Shown one piece after another: positions 49,500-63,592 of a stretch of DNA of 64,000 nt. The translations under genes and the position numbers were made by a program. The stretch lies in contig OZ260666.1 in assembly GCA_965285935.1 (NCBI GenBank), positions 682,001 through 746,000 on the forward strand, in the 5' to 3' direction. The stretch is from Ophelia neglecta. Its lineage: Eukaryota. Under the pieces are notes generated by a model, which saw only the letters and a list, made by a program, of their open reading frames with translations, had not been told where the DNA came from and ran no database searches. Each line of letters begins with the position of its first letter. Position 1 is the first letter of the stretch.

Positions 49500-52400
49500 A
49501 TTCCGTAATAACGGACCTGAATGGTAATTATGGCGAGGTTATAGGAAATGGTGGAGTTAAGCCTTTTTGGAGAAAAACATCCAACCAATTACCAGTATAA
49601 AATCAGACAGAATTATCTGGCTACAAATGGTTGATGATACAGGTATTACCTTAAATATTTTGTCTGTCTATCTCCCTCAACGAAATTGTAAGAGCCAAAC
49701 ATATATTGGTGTACTGAATATGCTTAAGGAGGCCGTTCTAGCTTTGAACGAAAGTGGGTTTGATAATTATTATGGGGGATTAAAATGTCCAGATCAGTAA
49801 GCATCATGGCCCTCGTGGTACAGATCGTTTATCCCAAAATGGCATGCAGCTCGATGCCTTCCTCCTTGAGACAGGGTTAGTGGCAGTAGATGTATCTGAA
49901 ATAGCGACAGGCCCGGCCTATACATATGTGGGTATTGGTAATGTTACATCATACATCGACCACTGTCTCATTTCGGTGTCGTTATTGCCCAATGTTATAT
50001 GTTGTAATGTACAGGAGGAAAACCTCACCAACACCTTAGATCACCTCCCCTTGTATGTGTCCATATCACTGGATAATTGGTATAAAATGGTTTACTCGGA
50101 GAGACCTCAGTGGAACAAACTAAACTGGAAAGGTATGACACGTGAGGATATTGCCAAAACGTACTCGGCACGAGTAGAAGATCAGTTGGCAGATGACATA
50201 ATATATTGTGATCTGACAAATGAGTATATCCTAGGTAATTTGTAGAGTCTATTAAATTAGTCTTGACTGACACTGCAGCCCTATCAATACCCCAATGTAA
50301 GTTTAAAAAGTGGCTCAAGCCTTATTGGAATAATACTGTAAACTGTGCGAAGAAGCATCAAATGGCGGATTATAACGCATGGGTTAATTCTGGTAGACCG
50401 AGAGACGCATCGAACATATTATACAGGAGATATAAAAAATGTAAGTCAGTTTATAGAAAGGAACGAAGGAGGGCGGCGCACCAGGAAGCAGAAAGAGAAC
50501 AGAAAGACCTTATATCATCGGGTGAATTTAGGCAAGACTTTTACTGGCGGCTGGTAAAGCTTAAACTAAAATCCGGTAGTAATGTAAGAGTCCATCTCAT
50601 AGAGAATGAAGAGGGCCGTTTACTCACTGATATTAATAAAATCCGCGACTAATGGGGAACTTATTGTCGTCGATTAATGTTGCCAAAGATTGATGAAACC
50701 TATTTGAATGGCTTTCAAAAAACTGTAGACAAAAGCTTAGAGAATTATTTGCAAAACTCATATGAGGAAATTGATGATATACTGGAGGAACCATTCTCAT
50801 TAAGTGAGACAACCGCAATGATTGCTCGCCTAAACCCAGGTAAAGCACCGGGCCACGATGGGCTCACTGCCGAGCATATCAAATACGGTGGTAACAGATT
50901 GTGTATCGCTTTGATGAACATATTTAACACTATTGTCCGCTTAGAATGTATCCCATTAAACCTTTTGAGATCCCATTGTTTAAAGGGGGCGACAAAGATC
51001 CCAACACGAAGGATAGTTATCGTAAGATTAGTCTACTACCTATTCCGAGTAAACTACTTGGGGGGGGGGGGGGGGGTAATCGAAGACCGACTCAATATAT
51101 GGTCGAAAGAGGCTGGGTGCATAAATGTTCTACAGGGGGCAGCTCAAGACCGATGCTCCAGTAAGCATTCGGCTCTGCTCTTACGGCAAAATGTTTACAC
51201 ACTTTTATATGAGGGTCATGTCGTCTATGTTGCCTTACTTGACATACGAAAGGCCTTTGACAGTGTATGGACGAATGGACTATTGTATTAATTATATAAC
51301 ATGGGTATAAAAGGCAAGACATTCAGAATATTACGTGAGTGGTTTAATCAGTTTATGTGCTCCGTTAGAATTGGGACTGGTCTGTCAGAATGGTTTGAAT
51401 CATTTCAGGGCCTCCACCAAGGTGGGATGTTATCGATGCTATTGTTCATTTTTTATTATAATGATTTATTAAATGAGTTGTCACATTGTGGAAAAGGAAG
51501 TCAATTATACGGCATGGAAGCTTCCTGTCCAGGCTTCGCCGATGACGTGTCCTTAGTTTCTACAAACCCCCAAAACAGAATATAGCTTATTCTTGTAGCA
51601 GGAGGTGGCGTCTTGCCTACAATGTCAAGAAAAGTGAGGTTCTTGTCTTTGGGGCGCCTAAATCAGTAGTGCCACCAACCCTGTACCTTGGCCCGGGGGC
51701 AGTCCCTGGGAGAGATGGCACCACCCCATCTTGGCACCCCTCTCGCCGTCTCTAGCGGAGCGCTGTCTGAATTGCTCCGAGCTAGACTCGATAAGGCTGC
51801 AAGGACCCTAAACGCGCTACTAGGAGTGGGCACAGCCCACGGGCTCTTCAATAGTCGTACACTATCGAAATTGTATTGGTCGGTGGTAATACCGGGTTTC
51901 CTGTGTGGTTTGGACATGCTGAATCTGTCTCGGAAACATATTGACCTGCTGGAGAAAGAGCATAGGCGCATGCCCAGACTGGTACAGAATTTGTCACCCA
52001 AGGCATGCAATGCAGCGGTCTTGGCCAGTATTGGATGGCGGAGTATTGAAGGAAGGAAGGTGGAGTGTGCGTTAAGTCCTAAGTTAGGATTGTTCCGGCA
52101 GCTGGTGCCGAACTACACAGGCATTGGCTGGTGGACACATGCTTGTAATATGAGGGCAGTTAAAGGCACGCAGGCTATTATTAAGTTAGCAACGGGTACA
52201 TCGGCTATACACAGCCATGTTGGTAAATACATAAACCCAAACCAAAATTGGTGTCCCTTATGCGGCGACCGTAGTGACGACATTAACCATTTCTTACTTA
52301 AATGTAATGCTCTCGCAAAAGAAAGATCTCTTCTGTTTTCAATGATTGATGTAGACACCTACGATGAGCGCCATGTAGAACCGTGTGTGACATTACTAAA

Positions 52401-52642
52401 CTGCGACTCTTACTTCCAAGAAAGTCAAACCAGTGTTTTAGAATATATCAATGCTATGTATAATCGTCGCCTCTACGCAGGTAAATACACACCGGTTAGG
52501 CCTACTTAGCTTATCACGCACATGTGAACCAAGTTTTTAACTACTTTGTTATGCTACCTTACTTTGAACTGTAAATATATTTTTCATTAACATGCATGTA
52601 CTCTCCGGAAAGCGGAGGAATGACAAATAAATATATAATATA
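49500..52642 (+). mobile_element. Decayed non-LTR retrotransposon (APE-RT, RTE-X-like) with multiple frameshifts and stops
   Basis: SVYLPQ, IDHC, DHLP, KAPGHDG, DIRKAFD, QGGMLS, FADD, CPLC..HFLLKC across frames; 3' GGAGG..AATAAA tail. Confidence 0.9.
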
Positions 52643-55000: not shown

Positions 55001-55192
55001 CAGTGGCGGATTCAGAGAGGGGGGGGGAGCCCCCCCCCTTTTGCCAAAAAATGGGTTTGGACCAGGGCCTATTTCTGGACCCACACAAGGTGGTTTCAGA
55101 GGGTTGGTAACGGGGACAATCCAGACAAATGACTTGTCAGCCTTGGAAAATTAATTCCCACCTCCCTTCCTGAAATCCTGGATCCGCCACTG
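55001..55192. mobile_element. hAT-like MITE (CAGTGGCGGAT TIR), copy 2
   Basis: CAGTGGCGGAT...ATCCGCCACTG. Confidence 0.82.
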
Positions 55193-55531
55193 TGCCTGTA
55201 TGGACGAGGCCGTGACCCAGGCGTGTTGTGTTGTTATGTGTACTATCTGGGGTAAATACACATACCGCTCCTAGTGTACACATGGTATAACGAGTGTATG
55301 ATCCCACCTGCACGTATGACTCTGGCATTGATTACTCGCATAGCTATCGACACGCCGCTGACCACATAAACTGGCTGTTTGTCTTACAAATAATATGTCT
55401 ACCTTATGTGTCCAGTGGGTTTCCAGTTATATTTGTGTAGGCAGGTGAATATCACACCTAGTATAGTAGTTTTATTGTTGAATAGTTTGGCCGGTAGGTG
55501 AGGTCAAACAGGACCAGCCAAAATTGCTTTG

Positions 55532-56181
55532 TGTAACCATGTACCCGCCAGGTGTCGCTTAACATTGTTTTACCTGAGCGCGGTTCTTACATTTACTCTC
55601 TACCTGATAGCCGGGCACTGCACACCACGGAATCTCTCATCGTTAAACAACGTGCATATAATGTTTTCTTCTACAGCCTAATGGTATGTTACAAATAACA
55701 GTACCTTGCATCCATTGCATTAATTTGTCATATTATCATTAGTGCTGTAGAGTTCGACGAGCGTTTTTGATAAATCTTCCGTATTTCACTTTACAGACCG
55801 TGCACGTGCATTGCCAGGCTAACTCGGCAATATTAAGGCCGAGGGTATCAATATAATCCCGTCCCTCACTGGGCAAGCCTAAAGCTGTAAGCTATTATAA
55901 AACCATGTATTTTGTCACGATAACAGGAATGAATCTACTTATAAATCCACACATCGTACAGTGATTTTCATGATTTAACAATGTAAGAAACGCGTAGAAA
56001 TTCCCCTTAATTGTACATTTGTTTTACATTGTTTTACATTACTTTGCTTTTATTCTTTCCAGATTATATTTTGTATCATTTTCGTTACTATCATTTTGAC
56101 ACCTTCATCTGTACATAAATTGCCATCCTACGCCATGAAATAAAGTTATACTTTTAACCCTGGATACTTCTCATTACTACA
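55532..56181 (+). mobile_element. Putative Gypsy LTR (about 650 bp)
   Basis: TGTA...TACA termini; AATAAA about 40 nt before the end; followed 3 nt later by a TGG-starting tRNA-complementary PBS. The left boundary is inferred. Confidence 0.65.
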
Positions 56182-56184
56182 AAA

Positions 56185-56253
56185 TGGCTCCCCGACGGGG
56201 AATTGAACCCCGGTCTCCCGCGTGACAGGCGGGGCTACTCACCACTATACTAT
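56185..56253 (-). tRNA. tRNA-Asp(GTC) copy with 3' CCA, lacking the first 6 nt (pseudo-tRNA or extended PBS)
   Basis: The minus strand reads ATAGTATAGTGGTGAGTAGCCCCGCCTGTCACGCGGGAGACCGGGGTTCAATTCCCCGTCGGGGAGCCA; the 5' acceptor strand TCCTCG is absent. Confidence 0.85.
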
Positions 56254-56264
56254 ACTACACTATA

Positions 56265-58050
56265 CAAACTAGCTGGACAAGTGAATATTCTGTGGATGAT
56301 CTCTGTGTAGCACAGACAAATGACCCATGTACGAGTTTGTCAGTTGTTGACAATGGGCCACAAACCTACTAGAAGGCTTTTTTCCAAAGAAAATTGGGAG
56401 GTACGCCGCATATGTTCTAAATGGGACCAATTGCGCATTGTTGATAATCTTTTATATAGACTTGTCAGCCTTAATGGCCAAGAGATATGGCAGTTTGTTG
56501 TCCCTATGGAAATGAGAAGCTACATGTTGTCCCTTTCACATGACCGTGCTGGTCATCAAGGTGTAGAAAGAACATTCTCTCTCATAAGAAAAAGGTGTTT
56601 TTGGATTAAAATGTACCAGGATGTAACCAAACATTGTACTCTTTGTGAGCGCTGCATGATAGCAAAAGCAGCAAGTACTAATCCAACTATTTCCAGTCTT
56701 ATTGCTAAGAGACCCTTTGAAATATTAGCCATCGACTTTACCTTAATTGACAAGTCTGCAAGTGGAGTAGAAAACGTACTTGTAATGACAGATGTGTTCT
56801 CAAAGTTCACTGTGGCTATTGCATGTAAAGACCAGAAGGCCACTACCGTAGCAAAAGCACTAGTTCGGGAATGGTTTCAAATTTTCGGTACACCTTCCCG
56901 AATTCATTCTGACCAAGGCCGAAATTTCGAAAGCAATGTCGTATAAGATAATTATGCAAAATCTATCAGATCAAAAAGTCTAGAACAACTTCTTTTCACC
57001 CTGAAGGTAACGCACAAACTGAACGGTTCAACCGAACGTTACACAATCTGTTGAAGGTTTTATCTAAAGAGGAGAAAAAGAAATGGCCAAAATTACTCCC
57101 TGAACTTACATTTACAACGCTACGCCACACAAGTCAACAGGCTTATCCCCCTACTTCAGGTTGTTTGGCCGTGACCCTGTCTTGCCGCTTGACATTGTAC
57201 TCGGTTCACTAGGTCCCAGAGAATCTCCAGATTGTGTGGTATATACTGGTGATGATATAGACAAGTGGCTGACAGAGCACCAATCTAATTTACAGTCTGC
57301 ATATAAATATGCTGCTGAAGGAATTGAAAAACAAGCATCACTCAGACGTGAGTTGTACAACTCTAAACCTAGAGTAAGTGATCGGCAAATTCCAATAGGT
57401 AGTAGGGTATTTCTGCGAAATAGACCGCTAGGCAGAAACAAAATTCAAAATAGATGGTTAGATACTCCATTTATTGTGACAGCAAAACCTGATAAAAACG
57501 TTTACACCATATAGTCCCTGCATCAGGCGAAGGAGAACCCAAGAAAGTCTCTCGATCCTCTCTCCTCGATGCTAGAATAATTTATCAGGAAACACAGATA
57601 TTGAATCCATAGATGATTCAGAGACCCTTAATGAAATTCCATCTCTTCAGTTACAGGAAGAAAAGCCTTCCGACAGTGACTCTGACAGTAGTAGCGAAGT
57701 TTCTTGGCACAATTTTCCAGTAGATATACCTATTCACCTTAATCCTACGACAAATATCGATACTCCCACGAGTGCCCAAGGTACGGAAACTATGGCTACT
57801 GCTGGACACGACAAAACCACTGTTATTTTAAACCCAAACACTTAACAGAAAATTGAAAAACCAGTAGAGTCCGAGGTACCGACAATCACAGTCGATCCTA
57901 CGGTCACTCATATTGTTCCAGGTAACGAACAAGAACATATTAAGATCCCCCGTAGATCTCCTCGACATAATCTTAGGAGCATAGCAACCCTCATCATTTG
58001 CCCCGCTCATCAGTGTCTGTATTGAACAGGGCTATGGCAGCTTTTACTCT
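56265..58050 (+). mobile_element. Gypsy/Ty3 pol remnant: integrase (HHCC and DDE), frameshifted
   Basis: HDRAGHQG...CTLCERC, AIDF, DVFSKF, HSDQGRNFES, HPEGNAQTERFNRTL, FGRDPVLPLD. Confidence 0.92.
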
Positions 58051-58308
58051 ATCTCCAAAGGACCGTGTAAAAGTATCAGCCGTTCAGTATATTTAAATCC
58101 TAGGTAGCCTAATGGCACAGATAGTTAAATGAAAATACTATATTATCTGTGGTACTTGTAAAAGAAAAATGATTAAAATGCTATGTGTTATTGATTGATA
58201 TTATCAAGTTGTGGTAACACGTATAAATTCTATGCGCACATTTATTCATTTATGTGGTCTCATAACATTATTCATGGACCCACAAATGATATTCATCATT
58301 GTTTTTTT

Positions 58309-58841
58309 CGGTGTCCAGTCAACTCGCGCGGGTGCTAGCTCGCGCGGGACACAACTCGCGCGGGTGCCAAGTCACACGAGGTTATTTTCACAGTTATTGT
58401 GTTGGATGGTTAACTACATTGCCGTAGTGGTGGAGGGCGTAAAAACTAACTTGTGGTCATTTTATCGCCAGATAGATCGCGAGATTTAAAAAAAAATATA
58501 TATATTATTGCTCATTCCCTTTTCACAGTGCTTTCTAAACTCAGATATAATATGTAGGGCGACTACGTATGGCATTCGAAGGCGAGTTCGCTAGTCACCA
58601 TAGGGCTTCGTCGGCAAACAGGCCGACTTGGATAAAGGGTGACTACGTATAGGGGCGAGTAATGGTTTCTGTTTGTTTCTTTTATATTAACAAATCATAA
58701 TGGGAGTTATGGATGTCTTGTCAACATGTCAAACATACTAAACTAACGGTATATTAAAACAAGCCCGCGCGAGTTGCCTGCCGCGCGAGTTGGCATAGAA
58801 CGTCGTGCGAGTTGGCACCCGCGCGAGTTGACCCGGGACCG
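58309..58841. mobile_element. Foldback/MITE-like DNA element with repeated AACTCGCGCGGG subterminal units
   Basis: CGGT..GTCAACTCGCGCGGGTGC inverted at both ends, inserted in a poly-T tract. Confidence 0.7.
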
Positions 58842-59684
58842 TTTTTTCCATCCGACCGGTCCATGTTTACATATGCACCTCAAATCAATTTATAGTTATA
58901 TATACATGCCCACAAGAAACAAAACAGAAATATCAGTTAATTGTATGTATCATGTATGCTATATATATATATATGTTCTTTTTGTGTCTAAATACGGTAG
59001 ATATAATTTATGAGGACATAAAATTTTAAATTGGTAAATTGAATATGAATAGAACACAGAAAATGTGTTCAATTAGATTTATACATTTAATAATTAATAA
59101 AAATTTGTTATAGGTGGCTCTTATACCCCCGCCGTTCTAAATTGGTAAAAAGGTGAGGAATAATACCAACCCACCTTGATCAGAGAGTGGACTGTTTTTC
59201 TGACCCCCCCCCCCCCTCACCCACCCCTTAACACGTTTTTTTTTTTCTATGACACCATTTGACTGCATCCTTTTGTGCCATTGGCACCCAGAAAGGCGCA
59301 TGCCACAAGCACACTCAGAAATGCTTGGGATGTTCGGGTCTGGGGTCATATGCCGGCAGCCAGATAATGGAAATTTCTAGAAGCTCTATGGTGCATTTTG
59401 ACACAACTTTCAGGAATTTAATGAATTTTAATATAATTTAACCACACTTAGTCTAATAGTCATAAAAAGTTGTCTTATGGTGTGGTCAAATTAACGAGGT
59501 AAAGGTCTGTATTGGGATGTGTTCAGATGGAGACTGTTACTTTTTTTATCTTTTAAAATAAAAATCCTGGCTAAACATGAAAGACTGCTCTAGAAGCCAT
59601 CCCTGCTCTGATCCAGCCGTCCGAAGCCAACTAAATCATACCAACTGTACATACAACAAACACCAAAATACTGGATATCACACA

Positions 59685-60265: not shown

Positions 60266-61842
60266 TAGCTTTAAGATAAAAACATTACAAACCCAGTAAA
60301 CTGCCATGATCCAATAGCTTTATTAAATAAAAACATGAAACACAAACCACAGCCTTATTCCAGTAGGAAGTGGCGCCCCCTTTTGGTGATACAAGGCAGC
60401 AAATACATTGCTGACAATTCTAAATGCCTTTTCAAAAAGTACAGGGTAAAAATGAATCGAATCATATTTACTGTGTGCAGCAAATTGAGAAAAGAACTGT
60501 TCAGTCTGGTGCTTGAACAATAAATTACCTCTTCAGCCACAAGGTGGCGCTATGCATTACTGCAAATAGGCTTATTCCTCAGAAAAATGAAACAAATTAT
60601 ACATTAAATAATCAACTTTATTATACAATACTGGGAAGGAACACCTGTGAGAGCGCCTATCCACAACACAGTAATGATACTACTTGGATATCAATATCCA
60701 CTGTGGATACTACTCAATTTATTACGCCATTTATTCTACTTTGATAAAAGTTTGTTATGACAACTGTTGGAATGTATATTATTTTAGAGCATAATGGTGA
60801 CTACTTTAGAGTACTTCCAATTAATTCCAGAATGATACTTGTTATTTCCCTGATTATACTCAGTTATATATTTATGCCTGCCATACTACTCCACTCATAC
60901 CTCTGTCCGGGTTAAGGTTTTTATGAAGAAAAAAGGATACAAAGTCAACATGGGAAAATAACCTATCCATAAAGCCTCCAATAACCCTCACAGCCAAACC
61001 AACCCTGACTAATAATGGAGAATTACTTCAGGCAATAACAGAATTACTGTCACATAAATTACTAGAGTATCATAGTCTTCACAACAGGTAGACTCAGTTT
61101 TATAGGTAGAGATAATTTAAAATTATGAAAATGAAATAGGTGAATAAATAGAGGGGCTAAATGTAGGGGCATTAGGGTAGATAATATCTGACAACTCTGG
61201 ACATCACAGGAATCCAGGCACATATTTACTAAAAATACAAAACAATAACAGCCATAAGGCTGTATATACAAGGATTTCTAGACTACTTTTGTTAAAACAC
61301 ATTATATAGCTGCATAGAAGGATAGTGCACAATGACAAACCTAGAGTTCAGCTTTAACCCAGCAGGGGGCAGCACTGAATTACAGCTACAGTACCATTCT
61401 ATAAACATTCTAATTTTTTTATCATTAAGAAAATATGTCTGTTACAAAACTTTATATCAACTGCATTGATAATAAGTGAAGGAGGTTATTAGCGTTCTTA
61501 GAACACACAAGAACACTGTCCAGAACTGCAACAATTACATAAAACTCCAGGTCTCCTGCCCATTTGTGTTATAAAAGAACGTTTTATCGCAAGAAAAAAA
61601 TGGGTACACAAATCTCCTACTCAGCCCTGATGATCAACGGAGGCATAACTACAAAACGAACCCACCTGGAAATTAGATAGAGCGCCCCATGCTAAGAAGA
61701 ATCCCCCCCCCCCCCTTAGAAATAAAATGGTTTCCCCCTATCCTAAGCATAACCCTTAGAAATGGAATGATAAAACCTTGGTCACTTTATTGCACCATCG
61801 AAATAAGAATGGAATAGATCACTTCAGTATAAAGGTGTAAAA

Positions 61843-62215
61843 AGTGTCACCAGAGTGTCACCAGTGTGTCACCCATTTGTCACCAGTGTGTCATCAGTAT
61901 GTCATCAGTGTGTCACCGGTATGTCACCAGTGTGTCACCTGTGTCTCATCAGTGTGTCATCAGTATGTCATCAGTGTGTCACCGGTGTGTCACCGGTGTG
62001 TCACCGGTGTGTCATCAGTGTGTCACCAGATTGGGATCTGTGTCACCAGTGTGTCATCAATGTGTCACGAGTGTGTAACCAGTGTGTCACTAGAGTGGGA
62101 CCAATGTGTCACCAGTGTGTCACCAATGTGTTACCAGAGTCCTGTCTGTCAACAGTGTGTCACCAGTGAGTCACTGATGTTACCTAAAGTCCTGTGTGTC
62201 AGCAGTGTGTCAGAA
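61843..62215. repeat. 11-bp minisatellite (GTGTCACCAGT)
   Basis: Read directly from the sequence. Confidence 0.9.
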
Positions 62216-63182
62216 GTCTCTTTATCGTGTGTCACTTGTTTCCTTCCCATGATTCTCTAGTAAGACACTAGCAAGTCACTGGTATAACACATGTCACTAG
62301 TGCATCACAAATGTCACTAACTAGTAACTCTCACAGATGTAAAAGAGAGATCTATGCCGTTCTGGTCAGATATAGTTAGGTACAACCAGGTTAGCTTATT
62401 GGGGCACATTATTAATACACATGGTAATATGCCCTAGCTCCAGGGCAACACAGTAATTTGCTCCCAGAGTGACACTCTAATATCCCAACAATCCCAGACA
62501 AAATGCAGCCCAGAAATAAACCTTACGACGGAACTTCTCAGTAGTGAAATGATAAAAATATTCCCATAAGACCAAATTTGCAAATTTAGCAAAAAGCAAT
62601 CGGTGCGAAAAATTTAAAATTGTGCACATTATATTTTTAACATACATGTATATGTGTATAGTATTTACATGTTTGCAGCCACGAAATTAAAAACCCGAGT
62701 GTATTTTTAACAAAAGGGGCAATTAAATCCCACACGAATATTTTTACCAATACTGGATGACAGAAATAAATCTACTCAAGGCACCGACCGCTCCTGTTAC
62801 TGACAACATCGGATACAGCAACGAAAAGTGAGTAGTGTAGTGACAACTTAGAATATCACCATGAAGAGTAAGTAGTATAATGATAATATTGTCATTTAAT
62901 AAATCATGACATCTGGTTCTGTCAACGAAGATGAATGTGGTGGTGCCACCTGTTGGAAGCAGTGATACCAATGATTGCTGTTTTGGCGTCCCTATTGGTG
63001 ATGGTGGTGCACTCTGGTTGGCACTTTAGCTATTAGACAGTCACAAAGCATGTTTTTCGCAGTGTGTCTGTCTCCAGTCACTGCCAGTGGGATGCCACCT
63101 AGCTTCTAATGTCAGTATTAGAGTCAGGGACGATGTTTTTGCCGACCCCTGAAGGCTGTTGTGGCGACCTCTAGCATGCACT

Positions 63183-63592
63183 GTTGGTACTAGAGAGTAA
63201 CGTAGGATGTTTTCGCAGGTCCCTGTTTATTCTGCGGGCGCCCCCTGGTGTTTATTGTGGGTACTAGAGAGTAATGTAGGATGTTTTCGCCAGCCCCTGT
63301 TTGTTCTGCGGGCGCCCCCTGGTGTTTATTGTGGGTACTAGAGAGTAATGTAGGATGTTTTCGCCAGCCCCTGTTTGTTCTGCGGGCGCCCCCTGGTGTT
63401 TATCGATGGTTCTAGAGAGAAACGTAGGATGTTTTCGCCGGTCCCTGTTATTTCTGGGGGCGCCCCCTGGTGTTAAACGTAGGTACTAGAGAGTAACGTA
63501 GGATGTATTTGCCAGCCCCTGTTATTTCTGGGGCACCCCCTGGTGTTTATTGTTGGTACTAGAGAGTAACGTAGGACGTTTTAGCGGGCCCT
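63183..63592. repeat. 74-bp tandem repeat overlapping the stop codon of the minus-strand gene, containing CTCF-like motifs
   Basis: GGTACTAGAGAGTAAYGTAGGATGTTTTCGC...GCGCCCCCTGGTG, about 5.5 copies. Confidence 0.92.

Follow-up and report, generated by a model that had tools for sequence, protein, structure and literature searches.

The window copy: LTR, primer-tRNA complement and junction

The window, a stretch of 64,000 nucleotides of the Ophelia neglecta genome (contig OZ260666.1, positions 682,001 to 746,000, forward strand), holds a defective copy of a Ty3/gypsy retrotransposon in which a long complement of mature tRNA-Asp(GTC) lies between the 5' LTR and a remnant of pol. In window positions, its features are as follows.

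55436..56181, + strand: 746-bp 5' LTR (TGTA..TACA) of a Ty3/gypsy family; identity to sister LTRs about 95%
56182..56184, + strand: 3-nt spacer from LTR to primer site, identical in sisters
56185..56250, + strand: complement (cDNA) of mature tRNA-Asp(GTC), beginning with its CCA and reaching back to tRNA nt 10, with one mismatch, at tRNA nt 25; its initial 12-13 nt are the normal primer-binding site of the family
56251..56265, + strand: three extra units of TATAC, the last five copied bases, the middle unit with one substitution; the first 3 letters also fit tRNA nt 9-7
56266..56270, + strand: 5-nt piece matching the family pol 19 bases upstream of where the jump finally lands
56269..58309, + strand: what is left of pol, starting in the RNase H-integrase linker, followed by the 3' region; identity to sisters 94-95%
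58309..58841, no strand: small inverted-repeat element, a later insertion not in sisters
58841..59030, + strand: end of the internal region, breaking off about 11 bases short of the 3' LTR, just before the polypurine tract

The sisters are two-LTR Ty3/gypsy elements with direct TG..CA LTRs, a primer site, a polypurine tract and a target duplication, and the domain order in the sister on C1 is PNMA-like gag, RVT_1, RT_RNaseH, H2C2 and rve. An earlier note, made from the letters of the window, had described an LTR-like segment starting at 55532. The segment is indeed an LTR, bounded by TGTA..TACA and repeated in the genome (72 BLAST matches), but it starts 96 bases further upstream, at 55436, where the family copies align. 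Beyond the spacer, as the note had proposed, comes a tRNA-Asp(GTC) copy with its CCA: 56185-56253 is complementary to 69 of the 75 nt of the genome's own tRNA-Asp(GTC) gene plus CCA, with a single mismatch, and runs in register past the primer site and past A58. Rfam RF00005 (37.8 bits) is the sole Rfam match in the window, and ARAGORN called no tRNA gene there. The copy has a CCA and no 5' acceptor strand.

How far the copy extends depends on how its end is read. The note had it lacking only the first 6 nt of the tRNA, and taken literally this holds, as the match reaches nt 7; a stop at nt 10 is an interpretation of the letters. TATAC forms a tandem array of four units at 56246-56265, one of them substituted, and because the last 3 matching letters double as the start of this repeat the end is ambiguous and may well be nt 10. 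The tRNA insert marks a deletion junction within a single element. Tested for a common origin, the LTR and the integrase proved to belong together: the copy is joined in the same orientation to pol of its own family, with a deletion of about 5.2 kb and 2 nt of microhomology at each of two hops. No gag, PR, RT or RNase H was found in the copy, the first three as the note had stated, and its integrase retains H2C2 and rve domains in a frame broken by frameshifts and stops. Likewise, neither a 3' LTR nor any other LTR piece was found in the window and the next 9.9 kb, no target duplication or polypurine tract was found for the copy, and both its flanks are single-copy, so that no empty site was found in the genome. 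For these reasons the argument for insertion of this copy by integrase is drawn from its sisters, and host repair may have completed a copy that has no 3' LTR.

Elsewhere in the window, a small element with terminal inverted repeats lies upstream of the LTR (55001-55192), like that at 58309-58841. Broken frames at 49784-52509 resemble, by eye, a non-LTR retrotransposon endonuclease and RT, with no Pfam match at E 0.001 in the three pieces scanned, and tandem arrays with 11-bp and 74-bp units occupy 61810-62235 and 63120-63591, respectively.

A genome-wide class of over-long primer-tRNA copies

The window junction is one of 19 long tRNA cDNA junctions in this genome, which involve tRNA-Asp, -Lys, -Thr, -Leu and -His; this number is a minimum. 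A CCA-plus-T-arm pattern occurred six times genome-wide against none with the reversed control. A generic CCA and T-arm pattern behind ACA gave 36 matches (15 in the reversed control), among them 15 tRNA cDNAs: Asp 5, Lys-CTT 5, Thr-TGT 2, Leu-CAG 2 and His 1. The other 21 were set aside as non-tRNA by eye, and Rfam found no tRNA in the 20 of these that were scanned, a scan that short pieces could escape. Other searches added four junctions, one Asp in a BEL/Pao-like pol and three Lys, of which one is degraded and has no LTR evidence. A wider pattern (110 matches, control 54) held one more real site among the 100 matches listed, and no LTR-tRNA junction was seen at 20 other loci. The base opposite A58 is correct in all copies found, which is partly a consequence of search design; a variant of the pattern that required a wrong base at 58 gave 50 matches versus 65 in the control, none of them tRNA-like by eye.

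The anatomy of the class is varied. The window copy and six others jump into the internal region with a deletion. Two Lys copies jump back to U5 or the LTR and then continue through a normal primer site and the internal region; these Lys-primed copies, at C2 95.28 Mb and C12 60.6 Mb, return from the tRNA to U5 or to a point 224 bases back in the LTR, which may be the transcription start. One Lys copy snaps back onto the LTR's own first 13 bases: at C12 59.78 Mb, an LTR, tRNA-Lys to nt 8 and the inverted first 13 bases of the LTR are flanked by a perfect 4-bp target duplication, and this is snap-back strong-stop DNA inserted as a mini element. In one Thr case the tRNA lies behind the 3' LTR (C2 107.8 Mb, a Thr-primed element that has two LTRs and whose 5' primer site is normal, where a SINE-like repeat interrupts the tRNA-Thr). 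The LTR and tRNA alone were also seen, and in an Asp copy on C1 they run straight into unrelated sequence with no target duplication. Microhomology of 3 nt was present at three other junctions. Among the seven copies with both ends read, the target duplication is a perfect 4 bp in five, has one mismatch in one and is unreadable in one; the perfect duplications indicate that integrase inserted the products. One Lys read-through junction is present twice, in tandem, and no two unrelated insertion sites were seen to share a long junction.

Some copies stand at the edge of this class. At C12 73.9 Mb, a full tRNA-Asp cDNA with CCA lies in the BEL/Pao-like pol, flanked by an 84-bp inversion on one side and a 13-base fold-back on the other; an env-like frame (weak Baculo_F match) follows downstream. 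This copy was rejected as an LTR junction owing to its place in pol beside the inversion; it was left out of the LTR count and kept in the A9 count below. Lys sites extended to 21-22 nt, at 8 of 30 loci read, were left uncounted, seven of them being apparent duplicates of one event. They stop near tRNA nt 55-56, resembling the HIV-1 stops near nt 54-55, and seven have a 12-base stutter in tandem and duplicated arrays. We also noticed a tRNA-Pro-like copy, identified by eye, with no 3' acceptor strand and no tie to an LTR.

The earlier note had pointed out that tRNA-Asp is often unmodified at A58. Read-through is not peculiar to this tRNA, as Lys, Thr, Leu and His primers behave likewise and the Asp excess is not significant. 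Read-through was found at 4 of 24 Asp sites, some of the 24 Asp-primed LTR junctions being segmental duplicates, against 5 of 97 Lys sites, of which 30 were read (p 0.076), or 3 of the 30 Lys sites read (p 0.69). An initial Asp-specific enrichment (p 0.02-0.05) was lost after the BEL case and one non-LTR site were removed and a Lys copy was added. With no clear Asp enrichment, low m1A58 on tRNA-Asp is not needed to explain the class.

Where copying ends and where tRNAs are methylated

End points were scored as the first departure from the genome's own tRNA genes. In three Asp copies this departure falls at A9: two stop there, and one misreads A9 and then continues to nt 1. One of these three exact cases is the BEL/Pao-like pol copy at the inversion, which is not behind an LTR. 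In other isotypes, copying first departs at C32 (one Thr), at the variable-loop C (one Leu-CAG) and at G37 (His), the last of which we take to be m1G37. One Asp and one Thr copy depart one base earlier than the expected site, and off-site stops were found in an old, degraded Asp copy near nt 41 and in a Leu copy at nt 63. Altogether, 6 of the 11 non-Lys copies end exactly at a site methylated in human tRNA and 8 of 11 within one base of it; for 6 of 11, under a uniform null that ignores tRNA structure, the binomial p is 3e-8 at 1/50 per copy and 2e-5 at 3/50. Since tRNA-Lys(CTT) also has an A at position 9, it serves as an internal control. A9 was copied correctly in 6 of 6 Lys-CTT copies versus none of the four unambiguous Asp copies that reach it (p 0.005), and with the window copy counted against, in 1 of 5 Asp copies (p 0.015). 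Such a contrast is what would be expected if methylation at A9 is confined to tRNA-Asp.

The Lys copies end at nt 1, 1, 6, 7, 8, 8, 15 and 33, and none of these end points has a modification explanation. As side observations, the Lys-CTT copy at C12 60.6 Mb stops just before C32, the same position as in Thr; two Lys copies carry a wrong base at G10, and a wrong base at G6 is present in one Lys copy and in the Asp copy at C12 73.9 Mb. Both G10 and G6 of tRNAs are often N2-methylated.

Human tRNA-Asp carries about 12% m1A58 and near-full m1A9, human tRNA-Thr has m3C32 and tRNA-Leu(CAG) has m3C47d, according to the accessible text of one report (PMC5066629). TRMT10B is described, in the available excerpts of two papers, as making m1A9 on tRNA-Asp only (PMC7293042; PMC6800469), and a preprint lists m1A9 on zebrafish tRNA-Asp as well (bioRxiv 10.1101/2024.01.30.575011). 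The system that emerges from these excerpts shares with ours an Asp-specific block at A9 and low m1A58; it was measured in vertebrates, whereas here it is inferred, from DNA, in an invertebrate. Three Trm10-family matches were found in the genome, one of which is an open 353-codon frame 47% identical to human TRMT10B. By the names of its relatives this frame is predicted to be TRMT10B-like in activity; a search of the PDB did not separate the TRMT10 paralogs. Taken together, and with the sites carried over from human, the places where the junctions end are likely to reflect Watson-Crick-face methylations on the primers.

The main challenge to this reading accepts the jump by RT and holds that the stops were dictated by the structure of the tRNA, the timing of RNase H or fortuitous microhomology, so that the match to methylated sites is coincidental. 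Lys copies show a similar tendency to stop close to the 5' end (four of eight do so at nt 6-8), and 3 of the 11 non-Lys copies, the window copy included, are more than one base off the expected site when read literally. However, coincidence would have to produce isotype-specific ends at four different known sites and the contrast between Asp and Lys at A9 (p 0.005-0.015), and the single Asp copy that passes A9 misreads that very base. We regard coincidence as unlikely, yet as the strongest of the competing accounts.

Origin of the junctions and relation to known systems

We propose that the window holds a dead Ty3/gypsy copy, one of at least 19 such junctions, whose RT over-copied the attached primer, likely stalled at methylated A9 and then jumped downstream on the minus strand; we consider this account probable. 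The family primes on tRNA-Asp through a 12-13 nt site. Plus-strand synthesis from U5 would have entered the primer, as its CCA and register show, and gone past A58, with RT the presumed enzyme; passage of A58 with the correct base would imply that A58 was unmethylated in that molecule. Copying would then have stopped after G10, before m1A9, and slipped back by five bases three times, slippage that a five-base repeat at tRNA nt 7-16 makes possible. Judging from the microhomology, the unpaired tail may next have primed synthesis anew within the RNase H-integrase linker, by way of two short hops, with the loss of about 5.2 kb. Finally, the product would have been integrated, as sister products were, and the 3' LTR lost then or later. 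The earlier note's central suggestion, read-through of the primer by RT followed by aberrant joining, is thus supported by the CCA end, the primer-site register, the short primer sites of sisters and the 18 comparable junctions found elsewhere. It had left open template jump or double-strand-break capture as the joining step; the target-site duplications of sisters make a jump during reverse transcription the better fit, and break capture the poorer one.

Joining by the host is the next account to be weighed. Here RT would still make the over-extended strong-stop DNA, and host end-joining, by break capture or flap repair, would join it, the five-base repeats being templated inserts. Short templated inserts are typical of polymerase-theta joining. 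This view suits the window copy, which breaks off immediately short of the polypurine tract with neither a 3' LTR nor a target duplication, and also the C1 Asp copy, which leads into unrelated sequence with no target duplication. Against it, the window junction joins the LTR to pol of the same family in the same orientation, and five of the seven two-ended sisters have perfect 4-bp duplications. A jump by RT is preferred, and we consider host end-joining rather improbable.

It is far less probable still that the family, or a sub-lineage of it, naturally bears a near-full tRNA at the primer site and multiplies with it in place. Two family copies do have a long tRNA, and one Lys junction occurs twice in tandem. 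However, the short 12-13 nt tRNA-Asp site is present at 7 of 9 exact-pattern primer sites of the window family, and four further short sites carry point changes, giving 11 sisters with short sites; the tRNA sequence lies outside the LTR, and 3' LTRs and solo LTRs of the family have none. The second long copy, on C2, has the same tRNA-Asp copy ending exactly at nt 10, and yet it lands near the gag-pol border with 2.7 kb lost (about 5.2 kb in the window copy) and shows no microhomology at its junction. Its LTRs are 99.5% alike, it has a perfect 4-bp target duplication, and its identity to sisters is about 99%, compared with about 95% for the window copy. With different junctions and ages, the two are independent events, and since the sisters have sites of 12-13 nt the long tRNA is an accident and not a family trait; nor was any long junction seen to recur at unrelated sites. 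The note's alternative of a family that naturally carries a near-full tRNA is thereby refuted. Several sisters on C8 share an insertion flank and a deleted LTR, and are thus segmental duplicates.

The tRNA genes of the host differ from the copies. Matches to tRNA-Asp genes number at least 35, with a tandem array of units of about 580 bp at C8 20.0 Mb; the Leu-CAG and His genes are arrayed too. None of 104 overlapping readings, from 25 array loci, had a CCA in a tRNA-Asp gene, and the trailer differs from that of the window copy in all 104, so that the genuine disrupted gene raised by the earlier note as a counter-reading finds no footing. Independently of the CCA, an intron is present in each of the 11 Lys-CTT gene loci examined and the Lys cDNA copies are spliced, which identifies mature tRNA as the template. 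The intron of the tRNA-Lys(CTT) genes (C9 6.8-7.6 Mb and others) is about 26-29 nt, and ARAGORN wrongly labels most of them Ser(AGA). A genomic tRNA-Asp gene or LINE-made tRNA pseudogene beside, or converted into, the LTR, or an assembly artefact, is hardly credible: Asp genes are many and the junction is known from the assembly alone, but the genes have no CCA and another trailer, the copy begins exactly at the primer site after the family spacer, spliced Lys copies could not arise by gene conversion, and there are 19 separate loci.

The closest parallel is in HIV-1, where the accessible text of a 2025 Commun Biol article describes 44 defective proviruses with delayed, aberrant second-strand transfer, which it ascribes to missing m1A58 (PMC12657518). 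Those proviruses share with the copies described here an LTR, a primer site, further primer-tRNA complement (7-54 nt in HIV-1), a deletion junction and integration. By the same text they are somatic and use tRNA-Lys3, whereas ours are germline-fixed Ty3/gypsy copies of several families with five primer isotypes, whose end points follow isotype-specific sites and which include snap-back and jump-back forms. In the available parts of two studies of HIV-1 RT, plus-strand strong-stop products P1-P5 arise where modified bases stop RT on the primer, and on an unmodified primer RT runs through to the 5' end (PMC13191261; PMC8599865). P1-P5 are presented there as in vitro or cell-culture intermediates of one tRNA and called non-integrable; the copies here are integrated and inherited. 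Ty3 RT, in the excerpt available, copies past its short primer site, and the first plus-strand strong-stop is normally displaced and unused, with a stop after 12 nt of tRNA-iMet (PMC5371799); here the copy is 66-69 nt long and the by-product was put to use. Helenus/TRIMp3 (Kojima 2024) also has tRNA-derived sequence in a non-autonomous LTR element, which, as far as the accessible text goes, lies inside both LTRs as a family trait (PMC10886601), in contrast to the copy-specific sequence outside the LTR, at the primer site, described here. Identity with Helenus/TRIMp3 was rejected on the same grounds, the window tRNA lying outside the LTR and the 3' and solo LTRs having none. We found no literature on inherited copies of such junctions or on reading modifications from them, in a search that covered subscription and older papers thinly. 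The mechanism itself is already published for HIV-1, and what would be new are the end points at methylated sites and the Asp/Lys contrast at A9.

We lean, if only slightly, towards the view that a fossil record of germline tRNA modification is preserved in animal genomes and can be mined, with over-copied primers in LTR retrotransposons stopping or erring at m1A9, m3C32, m3C47d and m1G37. If true, assemblies could supply modification maps for species and times that left no RNA and show how old enzyme specificities are, for instance the Asp-only m1A9 of TRMT10B, and Asp-specific m1A9 would extend beyond vertebrates. This would provide a cheap, DNA-only comparative test of tRNA modification across animals, together with in vivo, inherited evidence that modified bases halt retrotransposon RT on its primer, previously argued mostly from HIV-1 in vitro. 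Over-extended strong-stop DNA, usually termed a dead end, was often integrated here (4 of 24 Asp-primed LTR junctions), and jump-back forms offer a possible route for a whole tRNA into a retroelement leader. ARAGORN calls CCA-bearing, intron-less tRNA 'genes' at loci of such copies, a class of calls for which over-copied primers account.
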